From Squalus acanthias (Eukaryota): a stretch of 64,000 nt of DNA. Shown here in pieces: positions 31,614-58,011 of the stretch. Position 1 is the stretch's first letter; each line of letters opens with the position of its first letter. The stretch lies in the NCBI GenBank assembly GCA_030390025.1, contig CM059432.1:44890001-44954000 (forward strand), written 5' to 3'. The notes below the pieces were generated by a model that saw only the letters and a program-made list of their open reading frames with translations, was not told where the DNA came from and made no database searches. Both the position numbers and the translations under genes were made by a program.

Positions 31614-34154
31614 GGGCTGGATTTTCTGGCTGGAGGCGGGTTGGCGTCGGGAACGTGAAACGGTGGGTTCCAAACCCGCTGCCAGCTCTAGCCGGCCTGC
31701 TGACACAATTTTCCGCTAATTGGGCTAGTTAAGCCCGCCGTGTGCGATACCCACCCTGATCTCAAGGTGCGGGTCTGCTGAGCTGCTCTGTTGATGCGTT
31801 TGCAGCCGGAGTATTTAAGGGGGCCATTTCACAATTATATCTGAAGTCGTTTCTGCTGCTCCTGACTGCTGCTGCTGCTCACTATGTCTGCAAGAGACAG
31901 AAGGCAGCTCCCCGCTTCAATGAGGAATCCCTCCATGTTCTTGTGGAGGGAGTCAGAGGTCGTCGGGAGGTCCTCTCTCCCTATGTACAGAATCAATTCC
32001 CCATCTAACTATGCACCCCTCACACCCACCCTCAAGGTTGTGCAATGACAACAACTAGCAACTCAAAAGGAGGGAACTTGGAATGGGAACCCACTTCATC
32101 GTAGTCTCCCTCTAAACATCTATCATATCCATTCTATACACTCATTCCATCACTCTCACTGAAACTCCACTTCTTTCCCTCATTGCAGGAAAAGAGATCC
32201 CACAATAAGAGGGACAGGGAGAGAACAGGAGGAGGACCACCATCCGTGGGGCAGCTCACCCACGCTAAGGAGGCAGCTCTCGGCATTGCTGGAGGTGCTG
32301 AGGAGCTTGAAGTGGGGGACGGAGAGACGGGCTCAGTAGAGCAACCTGATGACAGAACTATTTTCCAACCATCTGATTTGGCATTCCTGAGTGACTCATA
32401 TGGGTTCTGATGTTTATAGAAATTGAGTGCTGATCATGTGCACAATGGGATGTGTCTGCAAGCTACATATCACATGTGTAACTCATGTCTTTACTCTCCC
32501 ACAGGACCATCAAGAGCCCCCCTCCCTACTTTCCAGGAGGAAGAGCAGGAGGACACCTCAAAGGAACCTCCATCCTCTGAGGGAGCAGCGTCAGCAGAAA
32601 TGAGCACACCCAGTACCAACGCAGGGATGCACACCTCGGTGGGTAGTTTGCGAGATAGATTAGTGTTTTCACCTGGTGTATCACAGCTCACAAGTGAGCA
32701 TGAGCAGATGGTGGAGACAGGGACAGCAGTGGAGAGTCCTCATCGGAGGCTGCAGGGCGATCCCAGCTCGGCTCAGCTGCATGTAGACGCTGTGCCTCTG
32801 GGGCCATCCAGAAAGAGAGCGGTGCTGGAGCTTCAGGAACAAGTGCAGGAGGGTCTGACTGGGTTTGCAACCACGGTGACTGCGAGTGTGCAGAGAATGG
32901 AGGAGTCCATGTCAAACATGAGCAATGCCGTGGTGCATGCAATGACGAATGTAGGTACTGTCATGGAAAGGATGGCAACCTCCATAGAGGACATAAATCG
33001 CCAGACTCAAGCCAACATGGTGACTCTTCTAGATAGATGGTCTGCTATGGAGGATAGATGGGCATCTATCGTGGAGAGGAACCAGAGGTACATTGACGTC
33101 CCCGTTTTGAGGACTGTCAGTACAGAGATGGGTCCTCATGGCCCCACTGATGTGCAGCAAGGTGATCTCCAACTACTTGCTAGCAGAGAAGTGCGGGTGG
33201 TCCATGAGAGGGATGATGGTGGGAGGCGACATGCAAGTGGGGGCTCCTCTCCAAGTGCTCTAACTTCCAGCCTCTTGCCAACCCCTCGGCCAGAGCCCCA
33301 GATGAGCACCCAAGCAGTAATGGCCAAGTCTGCCCCTGTGCAGCCGCAGGAGGAGCAGACTTTGGCGGGGCCTTCGCAGGCTCCAAAACCCAGAGGATGA
33401 CTGCCAAAGGCGTCTAAGCAGGCGCAGCAGGGAGTTGAGCAGGCTGTCTCTACATCTGCTGAAGCTACAGGGGGAGCACAACGTAGAAGCACGCGTAAGA
33501 GAAAGCTGACACGTAAATAATCACAAGGGTTCTCACTTGGGTGTTGTGCTAGAATTCAATGTGAAGTTTCTGTTCTTTTCTTATGTTGCAATAAATGAAT
33601 GTTGCATGAACGTTTGACATCGTTGCCATATGTGTGCTCACAATTTGAATTGGCACAATGAAGGGTGAGGGCGCCTTTTATGTCCAGCAATGCAGGTGAC
33701 AGTGGATATAGAGTTAACACCACATACTTACAGCCTAAACACAGAATGTGTCTCCCAAATTGTTAAATCACCAGCCTCTGACATTTGCAATTGAGCAAAA
33801 GTGAGAGTGCAGCTTGTACACTGCAGTTGCAGCTGTAAAGTATCCAGCTCGTTGGTCCTCCTGACACACTTACCTGGCGTGTTCTCCGAGCATTGTGAAA
33901 CCTGTTGAAAAGGTTGGAAAATAGCAAAAGCCTGTCAAAATAGCAGTTAACAAGCAATTAACAAGGAGTTAAGTGCTTTAAATCCTTTACCCGCCGCTTG
34001 GTGTCGGGTCTGTTGAGAAATTACAGACCCGACACTCTTGAAACTCACGCAGAGGCGGGTTCGCGGCGACATTCCAACCTGCCGTCAATCATTGCCATTT
34101 TGACACATGACCCGCCTCCGAACCCGCTCTCTGAGAGCCGGGACAATCGCGGTC
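31614..34154 (+). mobile_element. Harbinger element carrying only the Myb-like gene (element C)
   Basis: Left end GGGCTGGATTTT, degenerate right end, TSD TTT/TTT. Collinear with element D. No transposase motifs between the Myb polyA signal (33590) and the right end. Confidence 0.8.
31884..33520 (+). pseudogene. Harbinger Myb-like gene (exon 1 partly deleted; exon 2 from 32189; exon 3 32505-33520 with one internal TGA at 33398)
   Basis: APRFNEESLHVLVEGVRGRREVL; EKRSHNKRDRERTGGGPP...EAALGIAG; long ORF 32423..33400. Reading through the TGA gives a basic end RRSTRKRKLTRK*. Confidence 0.85.
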
Positions 34155-35816
34155 TTTATTTCTCTTTCTGTATCTGATTTGACCATAATTCACCCTATTT
34201 CCTTCTCTATCATTCCTGTTTCTTTCTCAATCATTAAATTTAATTGTTGAAGGAGCTAGACTATTGGTCCCGTCGATCAACAAAGTACCAGATGCCCCAT
34301 TGAATTTGCAGAGCATTAACAGCTCACACTTCCATCAACTTACAGGGCAAAAACTTTTCAAAGTGAAGGGTGAGGGAAAAAGTCTAACTAATGGGGCATG
34401 TCACAAGATGCTCCACTCCAGCAAGTTCTGAGCCTTTATGACTGTATAGAGTTGGTCAGGTTGTTCGGTTTTGTGGGAAATCTTGAATTTTTTCTATGCC
34501 CAGGGATTGTCCAATCCTATCCTTGGGCCGATAAAGGAAAACAAGCCATTCTTTTTATAGCCAGCCTTTGATTCAGGATTAACAGAAGACATAACTGTGG
34601 AATTCTTTGTAAATAATTAGCATTATTTTATTTTTAAACTATCAGCATTTACTTCACTTGAAGATTATTTGAGGAACTATCTAAGAATCTTTTTGTGAGG
34701 GCCATTATCTTGAAGGATTATCTATAGGGTCACACAATAAATGTTGATGCGATGGCACCAATAGACACACAGTTATTGAAGGCTGCTCCCACAACCCCTG
34801 TGGACTAGCCTTCAGAGGACTTGAGGGAGCTCGTGCCGGGGTTTGAAAAGAAGAACTTACATTTGTAAGGGAAGTTTGATGTCATCAGGATGCTCCAAAT
34901 TGCGTTACAAACAATGAATTGTGTTTCAGTTGTAGTCATTTACTATGTGACAAGGATTTACAAGGCTTAACTGAATATTGTTGGCATGTTTATTATAGAA
35001 GACTTTACGGACAATATTCTAATATTATTTATTTGTGACTAGCGCACTCAACAGCAGACACATGGATGATATTCTCATTTCCTTGCCCTGGAAGTGATAC
35101 AGTTCAGCTATAAATTACTCAGTTCTTCAAAGGTCTTGCCAGGGGCCATGCAGTATTCCTGCACAGAGCTGCACATTTCATATGGTGCTAAATTTTGGCT
35201 TATGCCACTGTTTTGAGGTAATTAATTCTTTTCCTGTTTTTAAAAACTCTTCTCTCCTCTCAAAGTAATGACCTGCAAGACTTGGTTTGACATGATAGTG
35301 GCAGGATTCTGGCCTCTCGCCCAAGTGGTGATTCTTAGTTAAAGAGCCTAAGCGGACAGCAAAAGGTAAAATCAGCAATTGATGCTCTCAATTATGGGGA
35401 GCTGTGCTCGACGGGGAGCATGGGTCAGAGAATTGGGGGGTACAATGAACCTTTGAACGTGGCTTCCCCACTGAGAATATGCGATTACTGAATTTATTCT
35501 TGAGTGTCTCAGGCTTTTTAGTCCTAAGCGGCATCACTGTCAAACCACATCTTGTTCTCACCTGACATTGACACACATACAGACACTTTTTAGCCGGAGG
35601 GTCAATAGTTAAAGGAGTAGAAACTCTGGCTGCTTTTCCTCAAAATAACTTGAGGATATTGAATACAATTGTGGTGTCTCCACTATTATCTTACTGAGAT
35701 CAACAAAGACTAGGATTGAGCCCTGGAACTTTCCTTGTCTGCGTGATCCAGCAACACACATCATTGCATTTAAGCACTGTGCACAATTAACCCTGCAAAC
35801 CTGAGCAAATAGTTTT

Positions 35817-38800
35817 TTGCCTGAAAATGCAGCATCTGACATAGTCATACTCACAAAATCATACATTTCAGCCAATGTCCCAGACTCCTCCATCACCATC
35901 CCTGGGTATGTCCTGTTCCACCGGCAAGACAGACCCACCAGGGGTGGCGGCACAGTGGAATACAATGGAGTGGCCCTGCGAGTCCTCAACATTGACTCCG
36001 GACCCCATGAAGTCTCTTGGCTTCAGGTAAAACATGGGCAAGGAAACCTCTTGCTGTTTACCACCAACTGCCCTCCCTCAGCTGATGAATCAGTACTCCT
36101 CCATGTTGAACATCACTTGGAAGAAGCACTGAAGGTAGCATGGGCACAGAATGTACTCTGGGTGGGGGACTTCAATGTCCATCACCAAGAGTGGTTCGGT
36201 AGCATCACTACTGACCGAGCTGGCCGAGTCCTGAAGGACATAACTGCCAGTCTGGGCCTGCGACAGGTGGTGAGAGAACCAACACGAGGGAAAAACCTAC
36301 TTGACCTCGTCCTCACCAATCTACCTGTCGCAGATGCATCTGTCCATGACAGCATTGGCAGCACAGTCATTGTGGAGACGAAGTCCCGTCTTCACACTGA
36401 GAACACCCTCCATCGTGTTGTGTGGCACTACCACCGTGCTAAATGGGATAGATTCAGAACAGATCTGGCAGCTCAAAACTGGGCATCCATGAGGCGCTGT
36501 GGGCCATCAGCAGCAGTGGAATTGTATTCCACCACAATCTGTAACCTCATGGCCCGGCATATTCCTCACTCTACAATTACCATCAAGCCAGGGGACCAAC
36601 CCGGGTTCAATAAGGAGTGTAGAAGAGCATGCCAGGAGCACCTAAAAATGCAGTGCCAACCTGGGGAAGCTGCAACACAGGACTACATGCATGCTAAAAA
36701 GTGGAGACAGCGTGCTACAGACAGAGCTAAGCGATCCCACAATCAAATCAAAGCTCTGCAGTCACAGAATCACAGAATCCCCACAGTGCAGATAGAGGCC
36801 ATTTCGGCCCATCGAGCCTGCACCGACACATATCCCACCCTATCCCCGTAACCCCACGTATTTAATCCCCCCAACACTAAGGGTCAATTTATCATAGCCA
36901 AATCAACCTAACCCGCACATCTTTGGACTGTGGGAGGAAACCGGAGCACCCGGAGGAAACCCACGCAGACACGGGGAGAATGTGCAAACTCCACACAGAC
37001 AGTCACCCCAGGCCGGATTCGAACCCAGGTCCCTGGCGCTGTGAGGCAACAGTGCTAACCACTATGCCACCGTGTTGCCCCAGTCCTGCCACATTCAGTC
37101 GTGAATGGTGGTGGACCATTAAACAACTAACGGGAGGAGGCTCCATGAATATCCCCATCCTCAATGATGGTGGAGCCCAGCACATGAGTGCAAAATACAA
37201 AGCTGAAGCGTTTGCAACCATCTTCAGCCAGAAGTGCCAAGTGGATGATCCATATCGGCCTCCTCCTGAGGTCATCACCATCACAGAAGCCAATCTTCAG
37301 CCAATTCGATTCACTCCATATGATATCAAGAAATGGCTGAGCGCACTGGATACAGCAAAGGCTGTGGGCCCCGACAACATCCCGGTTGTCGTGCTGAATA
37401 CTTGTGCTTCAGAACTAGCCGCGCCTCTAGCCAAGCTGTTCCAGTACAGCTATAACACTGGCATCCATCCGACAATGTGGAAAACTGCCCAGGTATGTCT
37501 GGTCCACAAAAAGCGGAACAAATCCAATCTGGCCAATTACAGCCCCATCAGTCTACTCTCAATCATCAGCAAAGTGATGGAAGGTGTCGTCGACAGTGCC
37601 ATCAAGCAGCACTTACTCACCAATAACCTGCTCACCGATGCTCAGTTTGGGTTCTGCCAGGACCACTCGGGTCCAGACCTCATTACAGCCTTGGTCCAAA
37701 CATGGACAAAGGTGTTGAATTCCAGAGGTGAGGTGAGAGTGGATGCCCTTGACTTCAAGGCAGCATTTGACTGGGTGTGGCTTCAAGGAGCCCTAGTAAA
37801 ACTGAAGTCAACGGGAATTGGGGGGAAAAATCTCCATTGGCTGGAGTCATACCTATCACAAAGGAAGATGGTTGTGATGGTTGGAGATCAATCATCACAG
37901 CCCCAGGACATCGCTGCAGGAGTTCCTCAGGGCAGTTTCCTCGGTCCAACCATCTTCAGCTGCTTCATCAGTGACCTTCCCTCCATAATAAAGTCAGAAG
38001 TGGTGATGTTCGCTGATAATTGCACAGTGTTCAGTTTCATTCGCAACTCCTCAGATAATTAATCGGTCCATGCCCGCATGCAGCAAGACCTGGACGACAT
38101 TCAGGCTTGGGCTGATAAGTAGCAGGTAACATTCATGCCACAAAAGTGCCAGGCAATGACTTTCTCCAACAAGCGAGTGTCTAATCACCGTCCCTTGACA
38201 TTCAGCAGCATTACCATCCCCCACCATGAATATCCTGGGGGTCACCATTGACCAGAAACTTAACTGGACCAGCCACATAAATACTGTGGCAACAAGAGCA
38301 GGTCAGAGGCTGGGCATTCTGCGGCGAGTGTCTCACCTCCTGACTCCCTGAAGCCTTTCCACCATCTACAAGGCACAAGTCAGGAGTGTGATGGAATACT
38401 CTCCACTTGCCTGGATCAGTGCAGCTCCAACAACATTCAAGAAGCTTGACACCATCCAGGACAAAGCAGCCCGCTTGATTGGCACCCCATCCACCACCTT
38501 AAACATTCACTCACTCCACCACCGGCGTACCGTGGCTGCAGTGTGTACTATTTACAAGATGCACTGCAGCAACTCGCCAAGGCTTCTTCGGTACCACCTC
38601 CCAAACTCACGACCTCTACCACCTAGAAGGACGAGGGCAGCAGGCGCATGGGAACACCACCACCTCAAAGTTCCTCTCCAAGTCACACACCATCCTGACT
38701 TGGAAGTATATCGCCGATCCTTCATCATTGCTGGGTCAAAATCCTGGAACTCCCTCCCGAACAGCACTGTGGGAGTACCTTCACCACCTGGACTGCAGCG

Positions 38801-38893
38801 GCTCACCACTACCTTCTCAAGGGCAATTAGGGATGGGCAATAAATGCTGGCCTTGTCAGCGATGCCCACATCCCATGAACGAATAAAAAAAAA
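35817..38893 (+). mobile_element. Near-complete ORF2 of a CR1/L2-group LINE (APE endonuclease + RT), decayed
   Basis: APE motifs RQDRPTRGGG, VGDFNVH, LLDLVLTN. RT motifs KAVGPDNIP, PISLLSIISKVME, QFGF, GVPQGSFLGP, FADNCT. 3' end ...CACATCCCATGAACGAATAAAAAAA. Confidence 0.95.
36764..37080 (-). mobile_element. HE1/V-type tRNA-derived SINE inserted in the LINE
   Basis: TSD CAGTC (36759-36763, 37081-37085). Minus-strand head TGGCATAGTGGTTAGCAC...GGTTCGAATCC (A/B boxes), V-domain-like core, CR1-derived tail ending in ATTCTGTG repeats. Confidence 0.92.
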
Positions 38894-39362
38894 ATCTGAT
38901 GTCCCAGTAACTGTTTGAATAATCTGGATTAAAAAAAGGAAAATATTTACAGTAGTGGGGTGAAATTATGCTGTGCAATACGCTATTAAGATTCAGGATC
39001 TTAACCTATTTGTATGAAATCTCTCTATCTGCTAAATCTTACTACTTTATCAAGCAAGTGAATAATGCAAATGTTCATGTGACAAAAATTCAGGTTTACT
39101 ACAGAAAATTAATCCAATTCAGTATTTTCAAAGAATATGTCGCTTTTGGATGTAAAAGGAAAAATATTTCATTAATAGGAACACCATCTCTAATCTTATT
39201 GACTGTCAAAAAATGTAAATACATCAGCAGGAAAAAGAAAATGTGTAGACAAAGCTGAACACTTTTCAAGTGTTTCATGAGCCAGTGATGATTATTATAG
39301 AAGGGATCAAGAGCAAACATTTGCAGTGGAACCCAGATGTTGAACATTTGAAGTGAAATGTC

Positions 39363-39628
39363 AGAGACAATATTCATATTAATACCTAGAGAGAGCAGAA
39401 TAAAGGAATGTGTGCGAAGACCAGTATGCAAATGCTCATGGAAATACAGCATGGAGGAGAAGTGGCAGCGTGGAATAATAACACTATGTAGGAGAGACAA
39501 TACTCATGCTAATACCGAAACAGAGCAGAATAAAGGACTGTGTGTGAAGACCAGTATGCAAATGCTAATGGCAATACAGTGTGGAGGAGAGGTGAGAGTG
39601 TGGAATAATAACGCTATGTAGGAGAGAA
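39363..39628. repeat. Tandem duplication, ~130-bp unit x2
   Basis: AGAGCAGAATAAAGG...GAAGACCAGTATGCAAATGCT...TGGAATAATAAC..TATGTAGGAGAG recurs at 39392 and 39522. Confidence 0.85.
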
Positions 39629-40085
39629 AACAATGGGCATGGAGGTGGTGAGATAACATGGAGGAGGCAGAAAAGAACAGCTGAGTAAGATGAAGGTGAC
39701 ATTGGAAAATGAGCAATTTAAGGTTTAAAGGGATATTCGCTGAGTATGTTTAAATAGGAAGAGTATAAAAACCATTGACCAATCCATATTGCTGAACAGC
39801 TTTGTGTGAAGTTGAGTTTCTTGTTCTTTTCATATTTTTATTGATTTTTCAGGAGCTTAACATGCAGATAAAAATTTTGTGAAGTCATTGTAGTTTTTGA
39901 TTGCACTGTGCTTTAGGAAAGTTCCATGTGTTATTTTTATGGGTGTTTATAGGCTGGGAGCAAGGCAGGTTTAAGGGTTGAGAAAGTTTGTTTGGTCTTG
40001 ATCCTTGGAGTTCACCTGCGAAGACGGGAGCAAGGAACATATTTAAAACAAGAGTCCAACTAATTTCCACAAACATGGTGACACT

Positions 40086-40367
40086 GGGGGGGAGGGGAGG
40101 GAATTTTAACCCCAGAAAATAGGTGGGTTTGCGTCGACTCCCTCCGCCTCTGATCCCGGCCTTCCGAACCTCCACTCCGATCCCGGCCTTCCGACCCCCC
40201 CTCTGATCCCGACCTTCCGAACCACATCCCGATCCCGGCCTCCGATCCCTACCTCCCTTCTCTCTGCTCCCTGGCTGCGGCCTGGTACTGCAGGCCTACC
40301 CACCCGATAGCCAGCCAGCCTTGCAATCTGGCTGGCTCCCTGCCTGCCTCCAAGTTAAATCCTGCCC
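40086..40367. mobile_element. Probable MITE with an internal GC-rich minisatellite (GATCCCGGCCTTCCGA x~4 at 40145-40250)
   Basis: Ends GGGAGGGAATTTTAAC and GTTAAATCCTGCCC. Possible ACT TSD. Confidence 0.45.
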
Positions 40368-40713
40368 ACTGTGTTTAAAATAAATGCCTCGTATTTTTCA
40401 CAGACCTATGTGGTGTTACAAAATCTCACTTTAACATTTTCAATTTGTCCTCCATGAGAGCTGTTCTCACCATTTCTCTTTCAGCAAGAAGTTGGGGCAA
40501 ATGAGGCCTGAAATGTCATTATGCTTGTAACTAATATTGTTATGTAATCATTCAACATCAGGCATCCGAAAGGCTGAATGACACAACAGCTATTCTCTTC
40601 CCCTAAAATTAAATGCTTAGGACATTTTGCCTAGTGGCTTGGCAGAGAACTGACAAAATCAGTTTGGGTGACAGGTAGTTATGGGATGATGCGATGACAA
40701 TTTGGGTGTGGAA

Positions 40714-41595
40714 GAACATAAGAACATAAGAACTAGGAGCAGGAGTAGGCCATACGCCCCCTCGAGCCTGCTCCGCCATTCAATAAGATCATGGCTGATC
40801 ATCGACCTCAACTCCACTTTCCCACCCGATCTCCATATCCCATGATTCCCCTAGTGTCCAAAAATCTATCTATCTCAGCCTTGAATATACACAAAGACTC
40901 AGCATTCACAGCCCTCTGGGGCAGAGAATTCCAAAGATTCACAACCCTCTGAGTGAAGAAATTCCTCCTCATCTCAGTCTTAAATGGCCTACCCCTTATC
41001 CTGAGACTATGCCCCCTAGTTCTAGACACTCCAGCCAGGGGAAACAACCTCTCAGCATCTACCCTGTCAATCCCTATCAGAATCTTGTATGTTTCAATGA
41101 GATCACCGCTCATTCTTCTAAACTCCAGAGAGTATAGGCCCATTCTACACAATCTCTCATCATAGGACAGCCCTCTCATCCCAGGAATCAATCTGGTGAA
41201 CCTTCGTTGCACCGCCTCCAAGGCAAGTATATCCTTCCTTAGCTAAGAAGACCAAAACTGTGCACAGTACTCCAGGTGTGGTCTCACCAAGGCCCTGTAC
41301 AATTGTAGCAAGACTTCCTTACTCTTATACTCCAACCCCCTTGCAATAAAGGCCAACATGCCATTTGCCTTCCTTATTGCTTGCTGTACCTGCGCGCTAG
41401 CTTTCTGTGTTTCTTGCACAAGGACACCCAAATCTCTCTGAACACCAACATTTGAAAGTTTCTCACCATTTAAAAAATATTTTGTTTTTCTATTCTTCCG
41501 ACCAAAGTGAATAACCTCACATTTCCTTACATTATACTCCATCTGCCACCTTACTGCCCTCACTTAGTCTATCTCTATCCCTTTGCAGACCCTTT
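40714..41595 (-). mobile_element. CR1 LINE, 3' part
   Basis: ORFs 40808..41221 and 41243..41563 (WQMEYNVRKCEVIHFG, LVRPHLEYCAQFWS, RRMSGDLIETYKI). CATAAGAA repeats. Confidence 0.95.
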
Positions 41596-44340
41596 GGACA
41601 CGATTTTGCGCCTGGAGGCGGGATGGTGGCGGGTCCGCTGGTCAGCGGGTTCTGGACCCACTACCGGTTGCCGTTGCCCTGCAATTAAAATTTTCCATTG
41701 ATTGTCCTCGTTAAGGCCGACGTGTGGGTTCTCCAAGGCAATCGCTGGGTGCCGGTCAGTTAGTCACGTCTGATGAGTCGATGTTGGACTAATTATTTAA
41801 AGGGGCCATGTCTCCTCTGCAGATTCATTTCTGTTTTGTTCCCTGAAGTGCTGGCTGCTGCAGGTATGGCAGCGTAAAAACCTAAGGCTGCTCCCCGCTT
41901 CGATCAGGACTCCCTCCATGCTCTTGTGGAGGGAGTAAGAGAACGTAAGGAGGTCCTCTTCCCTGGAGACGGAAGGAGGAGGCCTCCTCAGCATACCAAG
42001 GCAGCTTGGCTGCAAATTGCTGAGGAGGTCAGTTCGAGGTCAGTCTGCAGACGCACCTGGGTGCAGTGTCACAAGAGGTTTAATGATCTGTTGCGATCAG
42101 CAAAAGTGAGCATAACATCACACTTACCTTCCATCTGCCTCCCATCTCTTCTCATCCCCATCACTCTGCATTGGCAACCTTCCCCTGCACATCCCAACTC
42201 ACTCTAACATCCCTTGCACCCTCACCCATCCCTCTCTTTCTCTGTACAGAATCACGTCACCATCTTACTATGCATCACTCACACTCTTATGCAATACCAA
42301 CATCTAACAACGCACAGGGAGGGAACTTGGTTTCTGCACCTCACTCCTTCATAGTCTCCCTCTAAACATCTATGTCATCCATTCTTTACACTCATTCCAA
42401 CAATCTTTCGCAAACTCCACTTGTGTCCCTCATTACAGAAGAGAGCCCACAATAAAAGAGAGAGGGGGAGGACAGGAGGAGGCCCACCATCATTGGCGCA
42501 CCTAATGAGCGCTGAGGAGGCAGCCCTGGAGATTGCCGGAGGTGCAGAGGAGCTGGAAATGGGGGATGGAGAGACGGGCGTAGAAGAGCAAGCTGGTGAC
42601 AGAATTGATTTCCAACCTGCTGATTTAGCATTCATGAGTGACTAATATGGGAGATGATGCTCATAGAGATTGAGTGCTAAGCATCTGCACAATGGGATGT
42701 GTCTGCAACATACATTTCACTTGTCTAACTCATGCCTTTACTCCCCCACAGGACCATCGAGAGCCCCACTCCCCACTGTTCAGGAGAAAGAGCAGGAGCA
42801 CTCCTCAGAGGAACCATCAGTCTCTGAGGGAGCAGCGTCACCAGCAGTCAGCGCACCCAGCACCAGCGCAGAGACACACACCTCGGTGGGTTTTTTGCAA
42901 GATAGAGTAGTGTTGTCACCTGGTGTATCACAGCTCAAGTGAGCAGGAGCAGATGTTGGAGACAGGGACAGCAGTGGTGAGTCCTCGTCGGAGGATGCAG
43001 GGCTCTCTCAGCTCTGCTCAGCTGCATTTAAATGCTGAGGCTCTGTGGCCATCCAGAAAGAGAGCAGTGCTGGAGCTTCAGGAACAAGTGCAGGAGGCTC
43101 TGAGTGGGTTTGCTTCCATGGTAACTGCGAGTGTGCAGAGAATGGAGGAGTCCATCTTAAACATTAGCAATGCCGTGGTGAATGCTGTGGGCAATCTAGG
43201 TGCTGCCATGGAAAGGATGGCAACCTCCATGGAGGACCTAGCTCGCCAGACACAAGCCAACATGGTGGCTCTTCTAGATAGATGGGCAGCTATGGAGGAT
43301 AGAAGGCCATCTATCGTGGAGATGAACCAGAGGTACATGGACGTCCCGGTTATGAGGACTGTCAGTACAGAGACGGGTCCACATGGCCCCACTGATGTGC
43401 AGCAAGGTGCTCTCCAGCAACTTGCTAGCAGTGAAGTGCGGGTGACCCATGAGAGGGACGGTGGTGTTCGAGCACAAGGAAGTGGGGGCTTCTCTCCAAG
43501 CGTTCACACTCCCTTGCCACTGCCGAGCCCTCGGTCAGAGCCCCATCTGCCTGAGCCAACAGAGATGGCCGAGTCTGCCCCTGCGCAGCCGCAGGAGGAG
43601 CAGACTTTGGCAGGGCCCTCCAAGGCTCCGAAAACCAGAGGACGGCCGCCAAAGGTGTCTAAGCAGGAGCAGCAGGGAAGTGAGCAGGCTGCCTCCACAA
43701 ATGTTGAAGCCACAGGGGTCTCACAACGTAGAAAGCACGTGTAAGAGGAAGATGTCATGTTAATAATCACAAGGGTTCTCACTTGGGTGTTATGATAGAT
43801 TTAATTGTAAAGTTTCTGTTCTTTGCCAATATTGTAATAAATTGATGTAGAAACAATGGTTTGGCATCGTTGACATCTGTGTGATGTCAATTTGAGGGGG
43901 CACAGTTTAGGGTAAGTGCGCCTTTAAAATCCAGCAATGCAGGTTACTGTGGATCTATAGTGCACAACACATACTTGCAGCCTAAACACAGAATATGCCC
44001 CCCAAATTATTCAATCACAACCTCACAGATTACTAAATGACAAGATTTGAGAGTGCAGCTTTTACATTGCAGTTGCAGTTGTGAAGTCTCCAGCTCGCTG
44101 GTGTTAACGCCTCACTTACCTGGCGTGTTGTTGGATCGTCGTGAAACCCGACCCAGAAACTGGAAAATCCAAAAACCCTGTGATAATAGCTCTAAAATAC
44201 CACTTAATAGGCAGTTAAGCACCTTTAATCCCTCTCCCGCTGCTTGGTGTCGGGTCCGTTTGCAAATCGGAGAACCGATACTCGGGAAAGTTGCATGGAG
44301 GCGGGATCACGGCGGGTTCCGAACCCGCCGTCAATCATTT
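41596..44340 (+). mobile_element. Harbinger element carrying only the Myb-like gene (element D); right terminus lost
   Basis: Left end GGACACGATTTT...CTGGAGGCGGG resembles element C. Collinear with C through to 'GCCGTCAATCATT', then lacks C's last ~60 bp. Confidence 0.85.
41866..43763 (+). pseudogene. Harbinger Myb/SANT-like gene, 3 exons (41866-42105, 42439-42595, 42752-43763)
   Basis: Canonical GT-AG introns with matching phases (0 and 1). APRFDQDSLHALVEGV...AAWLQIAEEV...RRTWVQCHKRFNDLLRSAK; RTGGGPP. TAA at codon 4, 2-bp deletion near 42938 and 1-bp insertion near 43733 relative to C. Confidence 0.9.
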
Positions 44341-45345: not shown

Positions 45346-45791
45346 GATAGTCCTCTAATAGCCATTGGGATACTGGGCCATCCCTGTGGAAAACCTAACT
45401 TTTATTCACAAAGTATGTCTTCCTAGGGTGCAAATGTCTATCTGAAAATTTTAATGAGGCATAAAAAAGATGATTCTGGCTACAAATTGGATAGCCACCA
45501 AAAACGGGCAAGGGGATCGCAATGCGCGATTAACCCGCTCCTGTTCAATGTAATGCAGGCAGCACACAAACTTTGTGCTGCCTGCTAATTATAATGAGAG
45601 TGGCATGCAGCCCAGCGCTAAATATACTGCTGAGTGGCTGCACGCTCAGCAGGGATCCCAAGTTCGTGCAAGGCTAGCACCAATTAAAGCTAGCCTGCAC
45701 TTCTTAAAGACAATCTGCACCTCTTAAATGGCTGCAGCAGGTACTGGAAGTCGTTATAGAGGAGTGCATGTGACCTACAGGAAGAGTGAAG

Positions 45792-47698
45792 ATGGCGCAA
45801 CATGGTAGAGAGTGGGCTCCCAGATTTTCTGATGCAGCATTTGAGGCTCTGGTACAGCAGGTGGCCAGGAAGGAGAGATGTCCTGCATCCACAGGGGGGC
45901 CAGAGGTCCCTCCAGACAGACGCTGAGAAGGGAATGCGAGCAGATAGCCGTCGCTATCAATGCAAGCAATATAGCCACAAGGACCTGGATGCAGTGCAGG
46001 AAGAGGTTTAATGACCTTACACGAGTGGTCAAGGTGAGTGAATTCATCTTCAAATGCCATATCCCACAAACTGCACCATTAACCTCACACACTGCTCAAT
46101 TCACCACACCCCTATTACTCACCTACCAATAATCTCTATCAATCACGACTCATACCTTACATTCATAGGCTCCATCTCACCCTCACACATTTATCACTGC
46201 TGCAAGACTCACACCCACGTCTCACAGCTTGCACACACGACAGCCACATCAGCCAAACACAGTGAACCACACTCACTCACACACTGCCCTCTCTCTTGCA
46301 GGACAAGGTGGCGCACAATCGTGGACAGCTGCAGCTAACTTGAGGGGGACAGGCACGCCTTCATATCCTGACCCTGCTCGAGGAGACAGTGCTCCCCATA
46401 ATTGGAGTGGCTGTGACTGAGGCCGTGGCCAGCGGCAGCGCTGAAAGCATTGAAGATGACAGAATGCTCATACTTTATCCTCCTTCTCTCAACTCACAAT
46501 CACTTCTGACATACAAGCTTCAGAAGGTGCAAGCATGCACCTCGTGCTTTCACCACTCCCGCCACCTCATCGCCGCCCCCCGCCCCCACCCCGCCACCCT
46601 GCTCCCTGCACCACAACCATATCCTTGTTTCTCATTTCAGAAACCCAATATATCCAACCTGGCTAGCCAATGGTGCAAGAGGAAGAGGAGAGTGATGATG
46701 AAGAAAAAACACCATCACTTGATCTGACACGCGCAGCCACCAGCTCAGCTTCTGGCATTGCACGAACTTTAGAGGGTAGCTTAGAGGCGGGATCTGCAGG
46801 TGAGTCACCGGGCATGAGTGGCCTGCAGCCAGGGCAGGGGGAAAAGGTAGCACAAGTGCCTGCTCCCTGGAGATCAAGGTCGCACACCAGTTCTGCTGCA
46901 CAGGACTCAGATGAGGACTTCGATGGAGGAACGCTGACGGGTATGCACAACAAAATGCTTGGTGCATTGGCAGGAATGCCAGAAAGCCTGAATGCAATGT
47001 CAAGGAGGATGGAGGAGTCCTTCACCAACCTTGCACAAGGCTTTGTGCAGAACGTGGCACCCATCCTTTCCAGCGTGGAAGGGGTGGGCAGATCCATTAG
47101 CGCACTTGTGAACCCAACTATCATGCAACCTCTGATGGATGATGTCACAGCTTCCATTGCAGCACAAGCAATAGCCACCCAACGTCTGAGTGCTGCAATG
47201 GAAGCTCAGACTGAAGTCATGCAAGCTCAGCTTGCTGCCACGCAAGCACAGACGCTGCCATTGTGGCTGGGTTTACCCATGTTGAAAGTGGCTTGCAGGG
47301 TATCACAGCAGTCCAGCAATCTGTCCTCTAGCAGATTACTAGGATTGCTGAGGCATTGCCCCGGGTGAGTGGCAGTGGCTCCAGGGAGGATGAACCTGCT
47401 GTCAGGATGACAGCATTCGTCCTCCCACTGCTGCCACTCTGTCAGTGCCCTTGCTGTTGCCTGTCATCCAGCCAGCCCAGACTGCTGCCACCCATGCAGA
47501 GGTGGTGCTGTGTGGTACCGGGCCTACTAGGCCCAGAGCTGCTCGAGGTCATCCTGCAAGGCCATCTGCAGTGACCCCTCTGAAAGTCAGCAGCCTTCCA
47601 CCAGCCATGTTGTAGCCACTAGGGTAGCACTGCGAACGAGCACTAGGACAGGCAAAGGCACACGGAATACAGGCACTAAGGGAATGCGCAAGTGTGAT
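45792..47698 (+). pseudogene. Harbinger Myb-like gene, 3 exons (45792-46033, 46302-~46460, 46641-~47698)
   Basis: APRFSDAAFEALVQQV; TRTWMQCRKRFNDLTRVVK|GTGAG; TTGCAG|DKVAHNR; TTTCAG acceptor at 46640; ORF 46670..47368. Confidence 0.85.
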
Positions 47699-47756
47699 TA
47701 GTTGACTTTTGAGTGAAATATGGGACTACCGTTGAATGGGGAATTTGGTGTTGCGT

Positions 47757-48683
47757 TCACTGGCACCGTAGTCTGATGATTTGATCACAGACAGCCCAGA
47801 CAGAAAGGGGCTGTTTGGGCTGTCTCCTCCCTTCCTCCTCTTCTGCTTCCTCCTCATCCTCTTCTGCTTCCTCTTCATCCTCTTCTACTCCTCCTGCTCC
47901 TCTTCTTCCTCCTCCTCTTCTCCAGTTGGTCACCGTATTCCTCATGGCCTTTGTCATCCAGAGTCACCCTCTGGTTTGTCGTGGTGGATCAAATACTGAT
48001 GGTACAGCGCACTTCTGCAGAATGAGCGCATAATGGCTGCTACCAGGGTACCGAGCATTGACTTGCATGATGCACTGAGTATGGTAGCACACCAGCTGGA
48101 CATTGAGGTAGTGGAATCCCTTCCAGTTGCAGTCCATCTCCAAATTGAGATGCGGCCCCCCAAAGCGACATGTGTGCAGTCAATGGCACCCTGCACCCTG
48201 TTATCCTTATGAAGCTGCATGCTCCCTCCACCTGCTTCTTTCTGGTAAGAGAGAATGAAATGTATTCAGCTCTGCTTGCGTACAGAGCCTCACTCACCTC
48301 CCTTATACAGGAGTAGATGGCAAACTGGGAGATGTTACAGCCTAGAAGGAGCCCGACGCCAAGATGTTCATGGCCACGGTCACCTTTACAGCCACTGGTA
48401 ATGCTGTCCTCGTCCTGGACTGAGGCTGCAGGTCCGACTGCAGCACGTGGCAGATTTCAGTGAGCACCTCCTTAGTAAAACAGAGACGTCGCATGCACTG
48501 TTCCTCACTGAGGTTGAGGTAGGAGAAATGCTTCCTGAAGACCCTGGGTGGATATGGCCTCCTGCTGAGAGCCCTTCTCCCCCTCCTCTTCCTGCCTCTT
48601 CTTGCGGCTTGTTCTGCTCTGTTTCACCTCTGCTCATTCTCCCTGTCATGCAGGGAAAGGGGGATACAAGTTACTGCACCTAT
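47757..48683 (-). pseudogene. Harbinger transposase remnant with internal deletion
   Basis: RVQGAIDCTHVAL, SEALYASRAEYISF, and an acidic C-terminal tail ending IIRLRCQ*. The WLLGD...CCxLHN region is missing. Confidence 0.8.
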
Positions 48684-49744
48684 GTCTGGGAGCAACTGTT
48701 CTGAGCAGACCCCTTGCAAGTCAGTATGAAATCCTTGAGCATGTGCCATACCACTCCTTGTAGACTTTAGGCAACTTTAAAGAAATCTAGAAAGCACCAA
48801 ACATTTCTACAAACTCAGCAACAGCTAGTAGAAATCAATCAACAACTAACCTGTAAGTAGGTGATGATCCCTTTAAATTGTGCTTGTTGGGGGTCCTTCC
48901 TGCTGCTGAATGCATGTTCAGCTGTGTGAGGTTAAGAAAGGGCATTAGCACCAGCATTGAGATCGAAAATGGCAGCACTGGCGTCAAATCAACATTTCAT
49001 GCTGATTGACGTCACAATCTACCTACTCTGCATACTTACGGCGCACGCTCCCAACTCCGACGCTAATGCCCTCACCAAAATGGTGTCCGGCACGGCCCAC
49101 ATCAGAAGTGTGCGCATAGTGCTCGGATGCCATTTTCAAGCCAGACAATGGGCACTACCCAACTGAATTTTTAGCCCGAAATCTTTCATGTAACATGTAT
49201 ATGCTCGGATGTTTATTCTTCCACTTCCATTCATTTTATGCTATGTTAAGTTGGACCCAGATAATGCAATATTATTGTTCGTGTCTTTCCTCAGGGCTGC
49301 TCCCATTCCAATGCAAACAGGGTTTCCATCGCACTTTCGGCAAAGTTACGGGGATGGAGCAGGAGAAACTCAAAGTGAATTCCCAGCCATTGTTATGTTT
49401 ACTGTTATTTTTCATTCCACTACCTTTGCAATTGTGGATATAGATAAATAGGTTTGGATTTCCTACCATCCCTCCTCAGATTTTTCATCATAACTGAGGC
49501 AGGCAGGGGTGTTCTGTTGCATCCCTGCCAATTTTTACTTGTATCCAATTTCCCACAGGAAGGCATTTGCAAGCAGATGCATATAAGTGAAATACATTCT
49601 CTGAAGAATTCCCCGTTATTGGTGCCGTAACAATGCTGGACGTCCGAGACACCTGTTGATCCTTGAATCCAACATTACCATGGTGGTGGTGGGGTTCAAA
49701 TTTTTACCAGTAGAAATCCTGGCCAATCAATTTCAGAGTGATCA

Positions 49745-51358: not shown

Positions 51359-51454
51359 AAAGCAAAATACTGCGGAAGCTGGAAATCTGAAATAAAAACA
51401 GAAAATGCTGGAAATACTCAGCAGGTGAGGCAGCATCTGTGAAGAGAGAAACAG

Positions 51455-51491
51455 AGTTAACGTTTCAGGTCAATGACCCTTCGTCAGAACT
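51455..51491 (-). ncRNA. Minimal type I hammerhead ribozyme in the Penelope pseudo-LTR
   Basis: Minus strand reads AGTT-CTGACGA-A-GGGTC(ATT)GACCT-GAA-ACGT-T-AACT: stem I AGUU/AACU, core CUGACGA/GAAA, palindromic stem III. Confidence 0.85.
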
Positions 51492-52418
51492 GGAAAAAGC
51501 TAGAGATGGAACAGGTTTTTAAGCAAGTGCAGGGGCAGGGAAAGGAGGGAGGGGAGGAAAGAACAAAAGGGAAGGTCTGTGATAGGATGGAAGGCAGGAG
51601 AGATTAAGAGACATTAAGAGATGGTGCAAGGCAAAAGGAGATGGGAATGGGACAAGTTAAGAAACAAAGGATGGCTCTAGATGAAGTGGAAATGGCAGTG
51701 GCAGATGAAAGACAGCTGCCATGTGGGATAGAGATAAAAAAAATATATATATAAAATAAATGGAAAAAAAAAAGGATGGGGGCAGAAATTATGGTCTGAA
51801 ATTGTTGAACTCTATGTTGAGTCCAGAAGGCTGTAAAGTGCCTAACCGAAAGATGAGGAGCTGTTCCTCGAGCTTAGGTGGAGCTTCATTGGAACAGCGT
51901 AAGAGGCCGAGGACGGTGAGGTCTGAGTGGGAGTGGAGCGGAGAATTAAAGTGACAGGCGACCGGAAGCTCCAGGTCACCCTTACAGACTGAACGGAGGT
52001 GTTCTGCAAAGCGGTCACCCAATCTGCGTTTGATCTCCTAAATGTAGAGGAGACTGCATTGTGAGCAGCGAATACAGTATACTAAATTGCAAGAAGTACA
52101 AGTAAATCGATGTTTCACCTGGAAGGAGTGTTTGGGGCCCTGGACAGTGGGAAGGGTGGAGGTAAAAGGGCAGGTGTTGCATCTCCTGCGCTTGCACGGG
52201 AAGGTGCCGGGCAAAGGGGAAGGGGTGTTGGGGGTGATAGAGGAGTGGACCAGGGTGTCGCGGAGGGAGCGGTCCCTTCGGAATGCTGAAAGGGGAGGTG
52301 AGGGGAAGATGTGTTTGGTGGTGGGATCACGCTGGAGGTGGCGGAAATGGTGGAGGATGATCCGTTGAATGTGGAGGCTGGTGGGGTGAAAGGTGAGGAC
52401 AAGGGGAACCCTATCGTG

Positions 52419-52541
52419 TTTTACCTGATGAAGGAGCAGCGCTCCGAAAGCTCGTGATTTCAAATAAAACTGTTGGACTATAACCTGGTGTTGTGTGACT
52501 TCTCATTTTTGTCCACCCCAGTCCAACACCGGCATCTCCGC
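52419..52541 (+). mobile_element. 123-bp hammerhead-bearing Penelope-type mini-insert inside the Penelope ORF
   Basis: ATCGTG duplicated at 52413-52418 and 52542-52547. Absent at the homologous site in the other copies (58910, 59980). Same family as 879-1060. Confidence 0.9.
52421..52457 (+). ncRNA. Minimal type I hammerhead ribozyme
   Basis: TTAC-CTGATGA-A-GGAGC(AGC)GCTCC-GAA-AGCT-C-GTGA: stem I UUAC/GUGA, 5-bp stem II, palindromic AGCU stem III, CUC cleavage triplet. Confidence 0.85.
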
Positions 52542-54475
52542 ATCGTGGTTCCAGGAGGGAGGGGAAGGGGTGAGAGCAGAAGTGCGGGAAATAGAACGAA
52601 CATGTCGAGGGCCATGTCAACCACAGTAGAGGGGAATCCTTGGTTGAGGAAAAAGGAAGACAGGTCGGAAGCACCAGTATGGAAGGTAGCATCATCAGAG
52701 CAGATGCGGCGGAGATGGGGAAACTGGGAGAATGGAATAGAGTCCTTACAGGAAGCGGGGTGGGAGGAAGTGTAGTCCTGGTAGCTGTGGGAGTCAGTGG
52801 GCTTGTAGTGAATGTTTGTCAATAGTCTATCCCCAGAGATGGAGACAGAGAAGTCAAGGAAGGGAAGGGAAGAGTCGGAGATGGACCATGTGAAGGTGAG
52901 GGAAGGGTGGAAATTGGAAGCAAAGTGAATGAAATTTTCTAGTTCAGGGCGAGAGCAGGAAACAGCACCGATACAGTCATCAATGTATCAGAAAAAGAGG
53001 TGAGGAATGGGACCCGAGTAGGACTGGAACAAAGAATGTTCCACATATCCCACGAAAAGGCAGACATAGCTGGGACCCATGCGGGTACCCATAGCAACAC
53101 CTTTGATTTGGAGGAAATGGGTGGAGTCAAAGGAGAAGTTGTTCAATGTGAGAACAAGTTCAGCCAGGCGGAGGAGGGTGGTGGTGGATGGGGACTGGTT
53201 GGGCCTCTGTTCAAGGAAGAAGCGGAGGGCCCTCAGGCCATCCTGGTGGGGGTTGAGGTGTAGAAGGATTGGACGTCCATAGTGAAAAGGAGACGGTTGG
53301 GGTCAGGAAACTGGAAACTGTTAAAGTGGCGGAGGGTGTCGGAAGAGTTGTGGATGTAGATGGGAAGAGACTGGACAAGGGGAGAAAAAATAGAGTCGAG
53401 ATAGGAAGAGATAAGTTCCGTGGGGCAAGAACAGGCTGAAACGATGGGTCTACCAGGGCAGTCCTGTTTGTGGATCTTGGGAAGGATGAGGAAGTGGGCT
53501 GTGTGGGGTTGGGGAACTATGAGGTTGGTGGCCGTGGAGGGAAGATCTCCAGAGGAGATGAGGTCAGTGACGGTCTTGGAAACGGTGGCTTGATGTTCAG
53601 TAGTGGGGTCATAGTCCAGGCGGAGGTAGGAGGAGGTGTCGGAGAGTTGGCGTTCAGCCTGCGCTGGGTAGAGGTCGGTTCGCCAAACAACAACAGCACC
53701 ACCCTTGTCAGCAGGTTTAATGACAATGTCGGGGTTGGATCTGAGAGAATGGAGTGCTGCAAGTTCAGAGGGAGGTAGGTTGGAGTGAGTGAGGGGAGCA
53801 GAGAAATTGAGACGGCCGATGTCACGCCGGCAGTTGGCAATGAAAAGATCCAGAGAGGTTAAGAGGCCAGAGGGAGGGGTCCAGGTAGACTGAGAATTCT
53901 GAAAACAGGAGAAAGGGTCAGCTGTGCGGGGGTAGACTCTTGGCCAAAGAAGTGGGCATGGAGACGAAGGCAGCGGAAAAGAGCTCAGCGTCGTGCCGAG
54001 CTCGAAATTCATTGATGGGGGCGTACGGGGATAAAGCTCAGGCTTCAATTGAAAAACGATCTATAGACCCCCTTCTCAAACTTTGCTTGTTCAGGGGAAT
54101 GCTTGTACATCTGTGTGTTACTCTCCAATTTCATCGTCTTTTTTAGAAGATTAAGACATTGCCTTACAGGTACCCTTTTCAGGTCACTATCAGGCCATCC
54201 TTTATCTTCCATTTATAATCCAAATGCTAACTTTCTACCATAACACATCCCCTTTCTATACAATTGTAACAGACATGAGCAAAGATATCTTCTATTAAAA
54301 GATATACATACAGATATTACTCATCCTCACAATCCTCAGATTTTCTTAAATTGGTACAAACATAAAGCACAGCAGCACAAGGCATACTGGCCAACTCAGC
54401 AGAATCTCATTAGCCTACACTAGATTTAATAAAGAATTAAGAGAATCAAAGAAAGGATATCAGGCAGATCAGACT

Positions 54476-56412
54476 GCAGCAGAAATCGATAGTGCTGAAA
54501 ACCAAGTGTGGGCACCGTGATGTGCCATAGGCCCGTGCCCGTTCAAAGGAGTTCAGCCAGCACGTTAAATTTGTGATGCCTGCTAATTATAAAGATTTAC
54601 TTAAAGCTAGCCCGCGCCTCTTTAAGGCAGTCTGCACCTCTTAAAGGTGAGCTGCCTTCTGCTGATCATAAAAATGTTAAAAGTGCTTCAAGCACTAACC
54701 CAAAGGGCTCAACAGGCTGGGAAAGGGCACCCAGGGTCTCGGATGCAGCACTTGAGCTTTATGCAGGGGGTGAACACTCAAAGAGAGGTCCTCTACCCAC
54801 AGGGGGCCAGGATGCCCTCCAGAAAGAAGGATGTGGGACCCGATCACTGAGGCAGTCACTGCCAGCAGTGTCGCCCCACAGGACCTGGCTCCAGAGCCTA
54901 AAAGAGCTTTCATGACCTCTCACTGCCCAATACACAACCCCCGCCCCGCCCCCCCCCAATCACTCACCTACCAACAATCTCTACCAAACACGAGGCACAC
55001 CTCACATTCCCAGCTTCACCTCACCCCCTTGGAGGAGACGGTGCTGGCCATTCTTGGCAGGGGAATGGCTGAGCCCTTGGCCCGCGGCGGGCTGAAAGAA
55101 TACAAGATGCCGGTATCCTCATCCGTTAACATCCTTTTCACACCCCACTTCCCGCTCATCCCACAATATCTTCTGATTTACAAGCTGCACATGGTGTAAG
55201 CACACACCTCTTGCTTTCCCATCCTCCCTTCACCACAACCCTACCCTTGTGCCTTCCTCATTTCAGACACCCAAGAAATCCAGCCTGCCCAGCCAGTGGT
55301 TGACCAAGAAGAGGGAGAGCAGAGTGAAGAAGATGAAGAAACACCATCACTCGGTTTCACACTCCCAGCCACCAGCTGCAGTCTTCACCACTGAAGTCAG
55401 CAGTCTTCCACCAGCCATGCTGCAGCCAGTGGGGTAGCACTAGGATAGGCAAAGACACACGTAAGACACTCACTAAGGGAATGCACAAGGGTGATTAGTT
55501 GAGTTTTTGATGTGATATTGGATGCATATATGGATAAAGTTGAATTCAAAAGTTTGCTTTGTGGTGGCTTTTATTTCAGCATTGTGACCAAGGGGATGCT
55601 GTGATTGTCAGTAACAGAGGGAAGGTAAGGTGTGGGACAAATGTTGAAAGGGGAACTGGTGTTGTGTTCACTGGCACTACGGGCAGATGATTCAATCCTG
55701 GATAACCCAGCCAGAAAGGGGCTGTCTGGGTTGCCTCCTTCCTTCCACTTCCTCCTCTTCTGCTTCTTCCTCTTCTGCTTCTTCCTCTTCTGCTTCTTCC
55801 TCTTCCTCCTCCTCTTCCTTCTCCTCCTCCCTCTGCTCACAGCTTGTCCAGTTTACTGCCTTTGCTCCATTTCCATGTCATGCTGCAGCCCAAGGGGGAC
55901 GGCAACTAGAGCTCCCAAGACTGGGAGCAAATGGTGTTCTCAGAGGCCTTCCTTTAAGAGCCAAAGCCTTGCAAACATCCAGCAGCACTCCCTGCACACC
56001 CTTCACACTGTAACAACTTTTAAAATGTCTTACACCAAGCCACTACTCAAATAAAATGTAAAGAAACCAGTACAAAAGCAAAAATCTAACCTTACCTGAA
56101 AGTTGCGTGTGTCCCTTTAAGAAGCGCTGGTAGGGGGTCCGTCGTACAGCTGAACACACGTTCAGCTGTGCGTGCGTTGCAGAGGATGTTAATAAGCGTG
56201 GCGACGTCCAAAATAGCAGGTTGTGCGTCTATTCAGCATTGCACACTTATTGACGTCACAATCTGACTAATTATCATATTTGCAGCGCTGCCGACCTGCC
56301 CAAAATGGCGGCTGCTGCGTTCTGCGCCAGAAGTGGGTGGAAGCGAGGCAGTTGCCATTTCTCACTGAAACCGGCCTTATCAGTCGGTTCTAAGGGGCCA
56401 AATTTCATGCCC
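54476..56412. mobile_element. Deleted Harbinger related to element E (element F); left boundary approximate
   Basis: Myb exon remnants (LTPLEETVLAILG; TTTCAG acceptor at 55266). Transposase reduced to its N- and C-terminal acidic ends (55668-55885). Right end AATTTCATGCCC. Confidence 0.7.
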
Positions 56413-56419
56413 CTTATCT

Positions 56420-57250
56420 CTAGAGGCGATTGGTGGAGGAGAATTGCCTTTGCAGATTTCAGTATGGAAGCAATTGTGCCATCTATTGCAAATAGACCTG
56501 CAGACAATCTCAAGTACAGGGATCATGTTGCCAGTTACTACGACTCTCAACTTTTATGCCTCAGGCTCCTTCCATACAGCATAAACCAATTTGCAGTACA
56601 GAGGTGTATCAAATAGGTGACTGATACATTGGTCAGCAGGGCGAACTCGCTCATTATTTTTCCCACTGGATTGCACAGCAGCATGTCAGGGCTGTTCAGT
56701 TTCATAGCATTCCTGGATTCCTCAAAGTATTGGCAGTTATTAAAGGGATCCAATTGGCAATCTAAGTCCCATTTCATCAACATGCAGCTAATCAGTGATG
56801 ATCAATACCACATCATGCAGGTCAATGACCCTTTTTCAAGGCAGAAGTCACAATTCTTTCTTTCTAAGGTAATCATTTGTACCATCTTTATTGGAAGGGA
56901 AAGGCAGACTGTAAGGATGGCTCCTCAGGGGCTACAGCTACCCTCCCTCAGACATGGCTAAACACCCCTTGTACTAGACACAAACTGAACACAGATACAA
57001 TGAGGCTCATTCAGCTACCAGTATTGCCATAGAGCATATCATAGGAATCATGTAGCAGCATTTCAGGTGCATCAACAGATCAGAGGACATCTTGTTATAG
57101 AGCTCTGTCAGGATCTCCAAAATCATCATCATTTGTTGTGTACGCAAAGAGGCCTGGGCATGCAGGGAAAGGAGGAGGAGGAAGAATAAGAGAAGCAGGG
57201 ACGGACCACCCACAATCAAGGACAGAGAGGACATAATCATTGATTAAGAG
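56420..57250 (+). pseudogene. Old Harbinger transposase remnant (element G)
   Basis: TTLNFYASGSF, FAVQRCIK*VTDTLV, HFINMQLISD, YNEAHSATSIAIEHIIGIM*QHFRC, IIIICCV. Confidence 0.75.
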
Positions 57251-57974
57251 GAAGTCTCTGTAGAATCACCAGCAGCCAGGAAAAATCTTTTATCAGATGC
57301 TCACACAAAACATATTCAGCCAAGGGCCTGAGGTCACTATATAATGAAGCCTGCTGTCTACATGCACTCAATCAAGTATTACAAAACACCACCCCCACAT
57401 TATCCTTGCTACTGCATTCACTCCAATCAATGCCCATTCTTTGCTTAATAGCTGCCACAATTCAAAAGAAACTCATTGAAAAAGATAAAATGAAGCTATT
57501 AAAATGTATTCACCTACCTTGTGTTACGTGTCAGTGACGTTACCATCTTCTCCTCTAGCGCTGGTGTATTGTGTGCGACTTCTAACTCTGCACCCTTTGA
57601 CATCTTCTATGTGATTCCCCAGTGGAAGGAGTAATTATGCTGGCTGGTTGCAGAGCTTCAGTGGGAACTGCTTGGGATCCAGGTGGAACTATATCTTCTT
57701 GTTCCAGGTTAGGAGTTGGCCATGCAATTGCCCCTGCCTTGTACATGGCTGCAGTGGCCGCTGGGTCTTGCCTAATTTCTAGCACATGCATCATTGGTGT
57801 AAGGAGGCTGAATGGTCTGAATGTGTTGTCGCCTTGAGAGAATCATGTCCACTCCAGTCAGGTCCCTGCTGCTCAACAAAGGCAAAATACAGCAGATGCT
57901 GGAAATGTGAAATAAAAACAGAAAATGCTGGAAATACTCAGCAGGTCAGGCAGCATCTGTAGAGAGAGAAACAG

Positions 57975-58011
57975 AGTTAACATTTCAGGTCGATGACCCT
58001 TCGTCAGAACT
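57975..58011 (-). ncRNA. Minimal hammerhead motif (stem III palindrome decayed ACGT>ATGT)
   Basis: AGTT-CTGACGA-AGGGTCATCGACCT-GAAATGTT-AACT on the minus strand. Confidence 0.75.

Follow-up and report, generated by a model that had tools for sequence, protein, structure and literature searches.

Elements C and D, which lie in a 64,000-nucleotide stretch of the Squalus acanthias genome (contig CM059432.1, positions 44,890,001 to 44,954,000; hereafter the window), are probably dead copies of a Harbinger transposon family that has an open Myb gene in its consensus sequences and no transposase. The transposase was likely borrowed from the parent of the family, an autonomous element that encodes both proteins. 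Exact junction patterns match at least 245 Myb-only and at least 180 autonomous sequences, both counts being lower bounds, and the reversed control patterns gave no match. The original prediction, made from the letters of the window, had proposed a multi-copy Myb-only family and a transposase-encoding partner with similar ends, and both are present in the genome. It had also proposed a split two-component system. This part of the proposal is not supported, because the partner keeps its own Myb gene next to the transposase and is nearly as abundant; a full split of the kind proposed for Harbinger-1M_cIno, with each function residing only in separate elements, is not seen here.

The autonomous parent and the deletion junction

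C and D each have many relatives in the genome, 40 having been scored out of 19,651 candidates in one search and out of 15,732 in the other. At 13 loci the match to C is broken near its 3' part: six of these contain a transposase in the gap, one a truncated transposase, and six nested insertions. The consensus of the autonomous form, Ca (4251 bp, 26 copies), encodes the Myb protein and a 441-residue transposase, the two genes being arranged tail to tail. It is 95% identical to the C consensus over positions 1-2370, has the same terminal repeat, and its ends, GGC(C/T)..GATTTT, are common to all subfamily consensus sequences. Two real copies, L156 and L159, have 437-residue transposase frames with the PF13359 domain (E 6.5e-35 in L159). 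A DDE_Tnp_4 transposase combined with a Myb/SANT gene places the autonomous form in PIF/Harbinger. No solved structure was found for the transposase.

The 1.43 kb absent from C and D lie between two copies of a repeat of about 11 bp, one on either side of the parent's transposase gene, and contain the whole transposase frame. C retains a single copy of the repeat at its junction, and the junction of D is at the identical position (Table 1), in agreement with the claim that both elements lack the transposase at a common place. Three transposase queries had no match inside C or D in the window, and 30 queries had none in the C and D family consensus sequences at E<=1.

The C-type consensus (2820 bp, 29 copies) and the D-type consensus (2809 bp, 26 copies) have open three-exon frames of 471 and 470 amino acids, respectively, with GT/AG introns; the splice sites were predicted from GT/AG and the open frame in the consensus. 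Contigs of other organisms guessed to be RNA contained no clean splice joint and are uninformative on both splicing and the junction. No protein relatives at near length were found for exon 3. An exact 3-bp target-site duplication accompanies 38 of 77 automatic two-ended placements; its middle base is A or T in 29 of the 38, so that the target is not strictly TWA. The family thus has the properties of a derivative with the DNA-binding gene only: it is multi-copy, occupies insertion sites of its own, has no transposase, and the Myb frame is open in all seven Myb-only consensus sequences. Domesticated Myb genes of the NAIF1/MSANTD type are single intact loci without transposon ends; such a gene was ruled out here, where there are hundreds of copies with ends and both window copies are broken.

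The copies in the window

C and D had been described as about 80% identical and collinear end to end. The identity is 80.1% over 2453 aligned bases. The two are collinear, but D lacks about 60 bp of its right end, including the terminal repeat. Both were also said to keep the three-exon gene. Exon 3, of about 1 kb, does align codon for codon apart from the two indels in D, but a private 277-bp deletion in C removed the second half of exon 1, with most of the Myb domain and the splice donor. C is a mosaic: its nearest subfamilies are C1 and C3, but its exon 2 resembles that of Ca3 and C5. The adjacent flanks of the two elements (300-400 bp) align at the level of chance, with scores of 18 and 20. 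C and D are independent insertions and, as had been noted, both are disabled.

Table 1. Features of elements C and D (positions in the window)
Feature	Positions	Strand	Remarks
Element C, Myb-only Harbinger copy	31614..34154	+	both terminal repeats present; 3-bp TTT duplication
C exon 1 remnant	31884..31973	+	1-bp deletion near start, then 277-bp deletion
C predicted exon 2	32189..32348	+	
C predicted exon 3	32505..33520	+	stop at codon 432
Deletion junction in C	33694..33704	+	~11-bp repeat present once
Element D, Myb-only Harbinger copy	41596..44340	+	left terminal repeat present
D exon 1, Myb/SANT domain	41866..42105	+	PF13873, E 6.9e-11; stop at codon 4
D predicted exon 2	42439..42595	+	3-bp deletion at acceptor
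D predicted exon 3	42752..43763	+	two frameshifts (2-bp deletion, 1-bp insertion)
Deletion junction in D	43941..43951	+	position identical to that in C

A probable single deletion and a recombinant D

Subfamilies were defined from trees of copies, and the copies were assigned to them by eye. There are three autonomous subfamilies, Ca1 (21 copies), Ca2 (6) and Ca3 (3), and seven Myb-only ones, C4 (17), C1 (22), C2 (26), C3 (13), C5 (12), D (24) and E2 (22). A junction-picked sample consisted of 60 copies from the first 100 junction matches, most D-type copies and those already fetched being skipped; 56 of the 60 were assigned and four short ones left out. Two mosaics, L031 (window element C) and L032, were left out of the subfamily sets.

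From about position 2150 of the family consensus to the right end, both distances and trees arrange the subfamilies in a single ladder, Ca3-Ca2-Ca1-C4-C1-C3-C5-D-E2, with near-zero side branches. A basal position of D/E2 is rejected here in favour of one nested with C5 by the approximately unbiased (AU) test (p 3.5e-4 for 2081-2369 and 4e-25 for 2370-2820), and the right arm of D has about 44 derived sites in common with the Myb-only C5. Since the seven Myb-only subfamilies share one junction and their right arms form one ladder, a single deletion is likely to lie behind all of them; different breakpoints, which had been named as a finding against the idea, were not seen.

The left arms tell a different story. 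D/E2 is basal for 1-854, 855-1170 and 1801-2080 (AU p 1e-12, 0.003 and 4e-8), the tests do not decide its place for two stretches of exon 3, and the Myb gene of C is sister to that of Ca rather than to that of D (156 versus 18 informative sites). The conflict between the left- and right-arm trees indicates that D kept a C5-like deletion and right arm and has its Myb gene from elsewhere. On the evidence of these trees the D family is a recombinant whose promoter and Myb gene derive from a lineage that falls outside all C and Ca, the crossover being near the Myb stop codon at the end of exon 3 (consensus ~2120-2180). Divergence of C and D within a single Myb-only lineage, as had been proposed, is therefore not supported. 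It also follows that the ratio of nonsynonymous to synonymous rates (dN/dS) between C and D is no test of the idea. The values (0.37 overall and 0.15 for exons 1 and 2) were dropped, and they serve as a warning: where subfamilies exchange arms, a dN/dS value taken from two diverged copies misleads.

No autonomous element of the D type was found: there were no pattern matches, no transposase in place at any of 30 D right ends, no locus closer to D among 30 autonomous junction loci, and no D-type junction among 100 listed of the 180 autonomous matches. The E2 and C5 searches gave no autonomous D/E2-type donor among the best 40 candidates scored, where a rare donor is possible, and donors of C3, C5, D or E2 type were likewise absent from the best 40 scored. 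The autonomous element I (L399) was rejected as the donor of D because it is an outgroup.

Smaller tracts were copied as well: exon 2 of C5 is Ca3-like and positions 1640-1800 of E2 are Ca2-like, in addition to the swap of the whole gene in D. Exon 1 of family H (1.68 kb, non-coding, containing remnants of another transposase) is E2-like, 19 of the 20 D/E2 differences being in the E2 state, and the family may be either the donor or the recipient of that exon. Its copies (L367-L396) combine an E2-like left arm with a foreign right arm, and in a further chimera, L397:4395-5956, the left arm is A-like and the right arm that of H. Exchange of arms seems to be common among these elements.

Timing and order of the subfamilies

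The original prediction held that the lineage had spread for a long time. This is not supported: nine of the ten subfamilies are about equally old, with medians of 3.2-3.8% from their consensus at non-CpG sites (Ca2 5.3%). Decay amounts to at least 2.2% in every copy sampled. The masters of the subfamilies differ by 14-24% at the ends. Two hot spots carry nested insertions in 11 of 12 C4 copies of the junction-picked sample, in 5 of 14 C1 copies and in 1 of 15 C2 copies (C4 versus C2, p 1e-5), which indicates that the subfamilies followed one another; the host would have diverged only a little during this succession. At these hot spots, family consensus 2414 and 2639 (for example in L307, L311, L118 and L162), different Harbingers inserted independently, which points to long target-site preferences.

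The changes between masters gather at the ends and in exon 1 and are 53-73% transversions, whereas decay in the copies is even along the element, with 43-50% transversions. Error-prone gap repair with template switching would account for the deletion, the copied tracts and the speed of change, part of which may come from alleles shuffled between old lineages.

Possible selection on the Myb gene after loss of the transposase

Constraint on the Myb gene was judged against the private, non-CpG changes of decaying copies. The ratio of nonsynonymous to synonymous changes between masters is 0.46 of that in decaying copies for exon 1 (30:31 versus 321:154, p 0.006) and 0.38 for exon 2 (p 0.0035); the corresponding values between the autonomous subfamilies are 0.51, 0.52 and 0.73 for exons 1, 2 and 3. 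Replacements in exon 1 between masters are conservative (BLOSUM p 1e-4), and no stop codon arose between masters where 7.4 were expected (P 5e-4). Among lineage-private changes in exons 1 and 2 the counts are 15:18 versus 594:240 (p 0.003), most of them on the D-E2 step. The comparison between subfamilies is thus suggestive of constraint for exons 1 and 2 but not for exon 3, where the ratio is 1.04 (p 0.92) and amino-acid changes are neutral.

The neutrality of exon 3 is one of several results that weigh against selection in the Myb-only state. Without the D-E2 step the exon 1 ratio is 0.53 (p 0.074), and that step is not clean, given the E2-like exon 1 of family H; taken by itself, the C clade has too few private changes (8.5:7.5). 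On the C steps, 29 of 38 exon 1 changes match the state of another lineage, and copying from autonomous relatives may explain the conservation of the Myb gene. Relative to the divergence of intron 1, dN in exon 1 is about 0.65, and the low dN/dS thus stems in part from high dS. A comparison of conserved with variable positions, made on small, noisy consensus sequences, gave no significant difference (8:23 versus 67:155, p 0.68). All subfamilies have similar recognition helices and similar GGCGGGT end motifs, and no private pairing of Myb protein and ends is seen. Proteins of DNA transposons are, moreover, stated to evolve neutrally within genomes (PMC7070016). The evidence is suggestive and not settled, and it inclines slightly towards real selection on the Myb gene. 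Synonymous divergence in exon 1 exceeds the divergence of intron 1 and reaches 3-7 times the exon 3 value, also between autonomous subfamilies, and CpG sites do not explain it.

Alternative explanations

The strongest competitor, which is nevertheless rather unlikely, treats the Myb gene as a passenger. It accepts one deletion but has the elements mobilised in trans by both parent proteins, with the Myb gene refreshed by conversion from autonomous elements and selection acting there. The matches of exon 1 changes to other lineages, the copied tracts and the gene swap in D all suit it, as does the abundance of a parent that keeps its own Myb. So does the multiplication of non-coding derivatives of D, which account for 6 of 30 D right ends, the Myb gene being dispensable for movement. 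The lineage-private changes in exons 1 and 2 do not suit it, and the 93.5 nonsynonymous changes on the C steps include no stop where 4.9 are expected (P 0.0065). The C3, C5, D and E2-type donors that it calls for did not appear among the candidates scored.

The remaining readings are far less probable. Were the ~11-bp repeat a deletion hot spot, C and D could each have arisen from an autonomous parent of its own, that of D having vanished. The repeat pair is indeed old, being present also in the outgroup element G, the Myb gene of C groups with Ca, and the E2 junction agrees with the parent at two positions where D differs. Independent deletions are nonetheless very improbable, in view of the derived sites common to D and C5, the rejected basal place of the right arm and the lack of a D-type autonomous junction in the pattern search and among the 100 listed of 180 matches. 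Repeated horizontal transfer of subfamilies that evolved, and were selected, in other hosts is more improbable still. It would explain why masters differ more than the ages of their copies allow; transfer imposes purifying selection (PMC7070016) and is on record for Harbingers (PMC8437027). However, a Myb-only newcomer still needs a partner, which brings its own Myb, and a ladder with near-zero side branches requires many transfers in order. Least credible of all, and refuted, is an old segmental duplication of C and D. The 530-bp, 88% match upstream of both elements would fit it but is a common repeat (54 of 366 loci); as said, the adjacent flanks do not align, and closer relatives of either element occur elsewhere by the dozen.

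A proposed course of events

Anatomy, parent, junction and mosaicism are demonstrated by comparison of the sequences. The preferred history would begin with a single microhomology-mediated deletion in a Ca1-like element, from which successive masters would have arisen in the order C4>C1>(C2; C3>C5)>D>E2. D would have formed when, through template switching in the course of gap repair, a C5-like element acquired promoter and Myb gene from a more distant Harbinger; smaller tracts would also have been copied between lineages. The shared ends, the target-site duplications and the copy numbers suggest that Myb-only elements moved with the transposase of the parent.

In Harbingers the Myb protein is reported to bind the ends and to carry the transposase into the nucleus (PMC9179366). 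An element's own Myb gene is, as judged from the multiplied non-coding D derivatives and from the shared recognition helix and end motifs, unnecessary for movement. These derivatives, of about 770 bp (L181, L183, L191 and L196) and about 990 bp (L182 and L186), were made by further deletions between short repeats. That the masters' own Myb was nevertheless useful is the least sure step, held with only a slight leaning in its favour; the likeliest reason would be that few copies were open and expressed per germ cell at a time, so that the copy making the Myb protein would be the one loaded with transposase. One open, expressed copy per germ cell has been proposed as the cause of selection for long terminal repeat (LTR) elements (PMC7070016). 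More tentative is the reading that the helper protein of this non-autonomous transposon was itself under purifying selection within one genome, against the rule of neutral evolution there, that the promoter-plus-Myb arm acts as a swappable unit, and that masters change far faster than the host clock. The case makes it testable whether selection can act on a trans-acting protein of a DNA transposon when no horizontal transfer takes place, which is reported not to be so in general (PMC7070016).

Relation to known Harbingers

Harbingers with the DNA-binding gene only are reported from sea kraits (PMC8437027) and from Caenorhabditis inopinata (PMC13668399, 2026). The Myb-only layout is thus already known, and what the present case adds is a fully traceable history of parent, exact deletion, seven successive subfamilies and gene swap, within a single genome that holds hundreds of copies. 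Harbinger-1M_cIno as well as Harbinger-2M_cIno of C. inopinata resemble the shark elements in that derivatives with the DNA-binding gene only multiplied and kept their ends and 3-bp duplications, that short non-coding elements arose, and that transposase supplied in trans is proposed. There a single intact locus is the source of transposase, and the family is still active (PMC13668399), whereas here the two-gene parent is nearly as common as its derivatives and all sampled copies are decayed. In the main text of that paper a word search found none of the terms purifying, synonymous, recombination and microhomology; the shared junction, the subfamily ladder and the gene swap set the present account apart from it.

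The Harbinger-Snek solo-ORF (open reading frame) variants of sea kraits are likewise vertebrate, multi-copy and reduced to the DNA-binding gene; 452 intact ones are given for one species and ascribed to large deletions, and the account of them describes no subfamily succession, selection test or gene swap (PMC8437027). Autonomous fish Harbingers encode a transposase together with a Myb-like protein, as here, but recombination between their sublineages is described as rare, in contrast to the frequent exchange of arms and tracts among close subfamilies here (PMC9179366). The literature searches, supplements aside, listed no paper on selection in Myb-only Harbingers or on the swapping of their genes.

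Other elements

Two other groups were considered as the partner and rejected. The top PF13359 matches (30 loci; 150 scored of 63,886 candidates) are a young other family without the C/D ends, and the family of element A is non-coding. The young autonomous Harbinger family at loci L061-L090 is a separate one; many of its transposase frames are open, and its copies are 93-99% identical. Element A (window 8393-10109, minus strand) belongs to a non-coding Harbinger family of 1.77 kb that shares the terminal repeat; the family has remnants of Myb exon 1 and of a transposase and at least 40 copies (40 scored).

Element B (window ~11100-15130) is a decayed two-gene Harbinger of a more distant family, its Myb gene on the plus strand and its transposase gene on the minus strand, tail to tail. 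Two related Harbingers at ~45500-49200 and ~54500-57300 are collinear at about 77%, the first having an internally deleted transposase. Window positions 57912-61002 and 51359-53432 contain a 1.26-kb inverted repeat pair (89%), to which a copy 6 kb upstream is related; the GC skew is strong, and the pair is possibly a long-repeat element of the foldback type.

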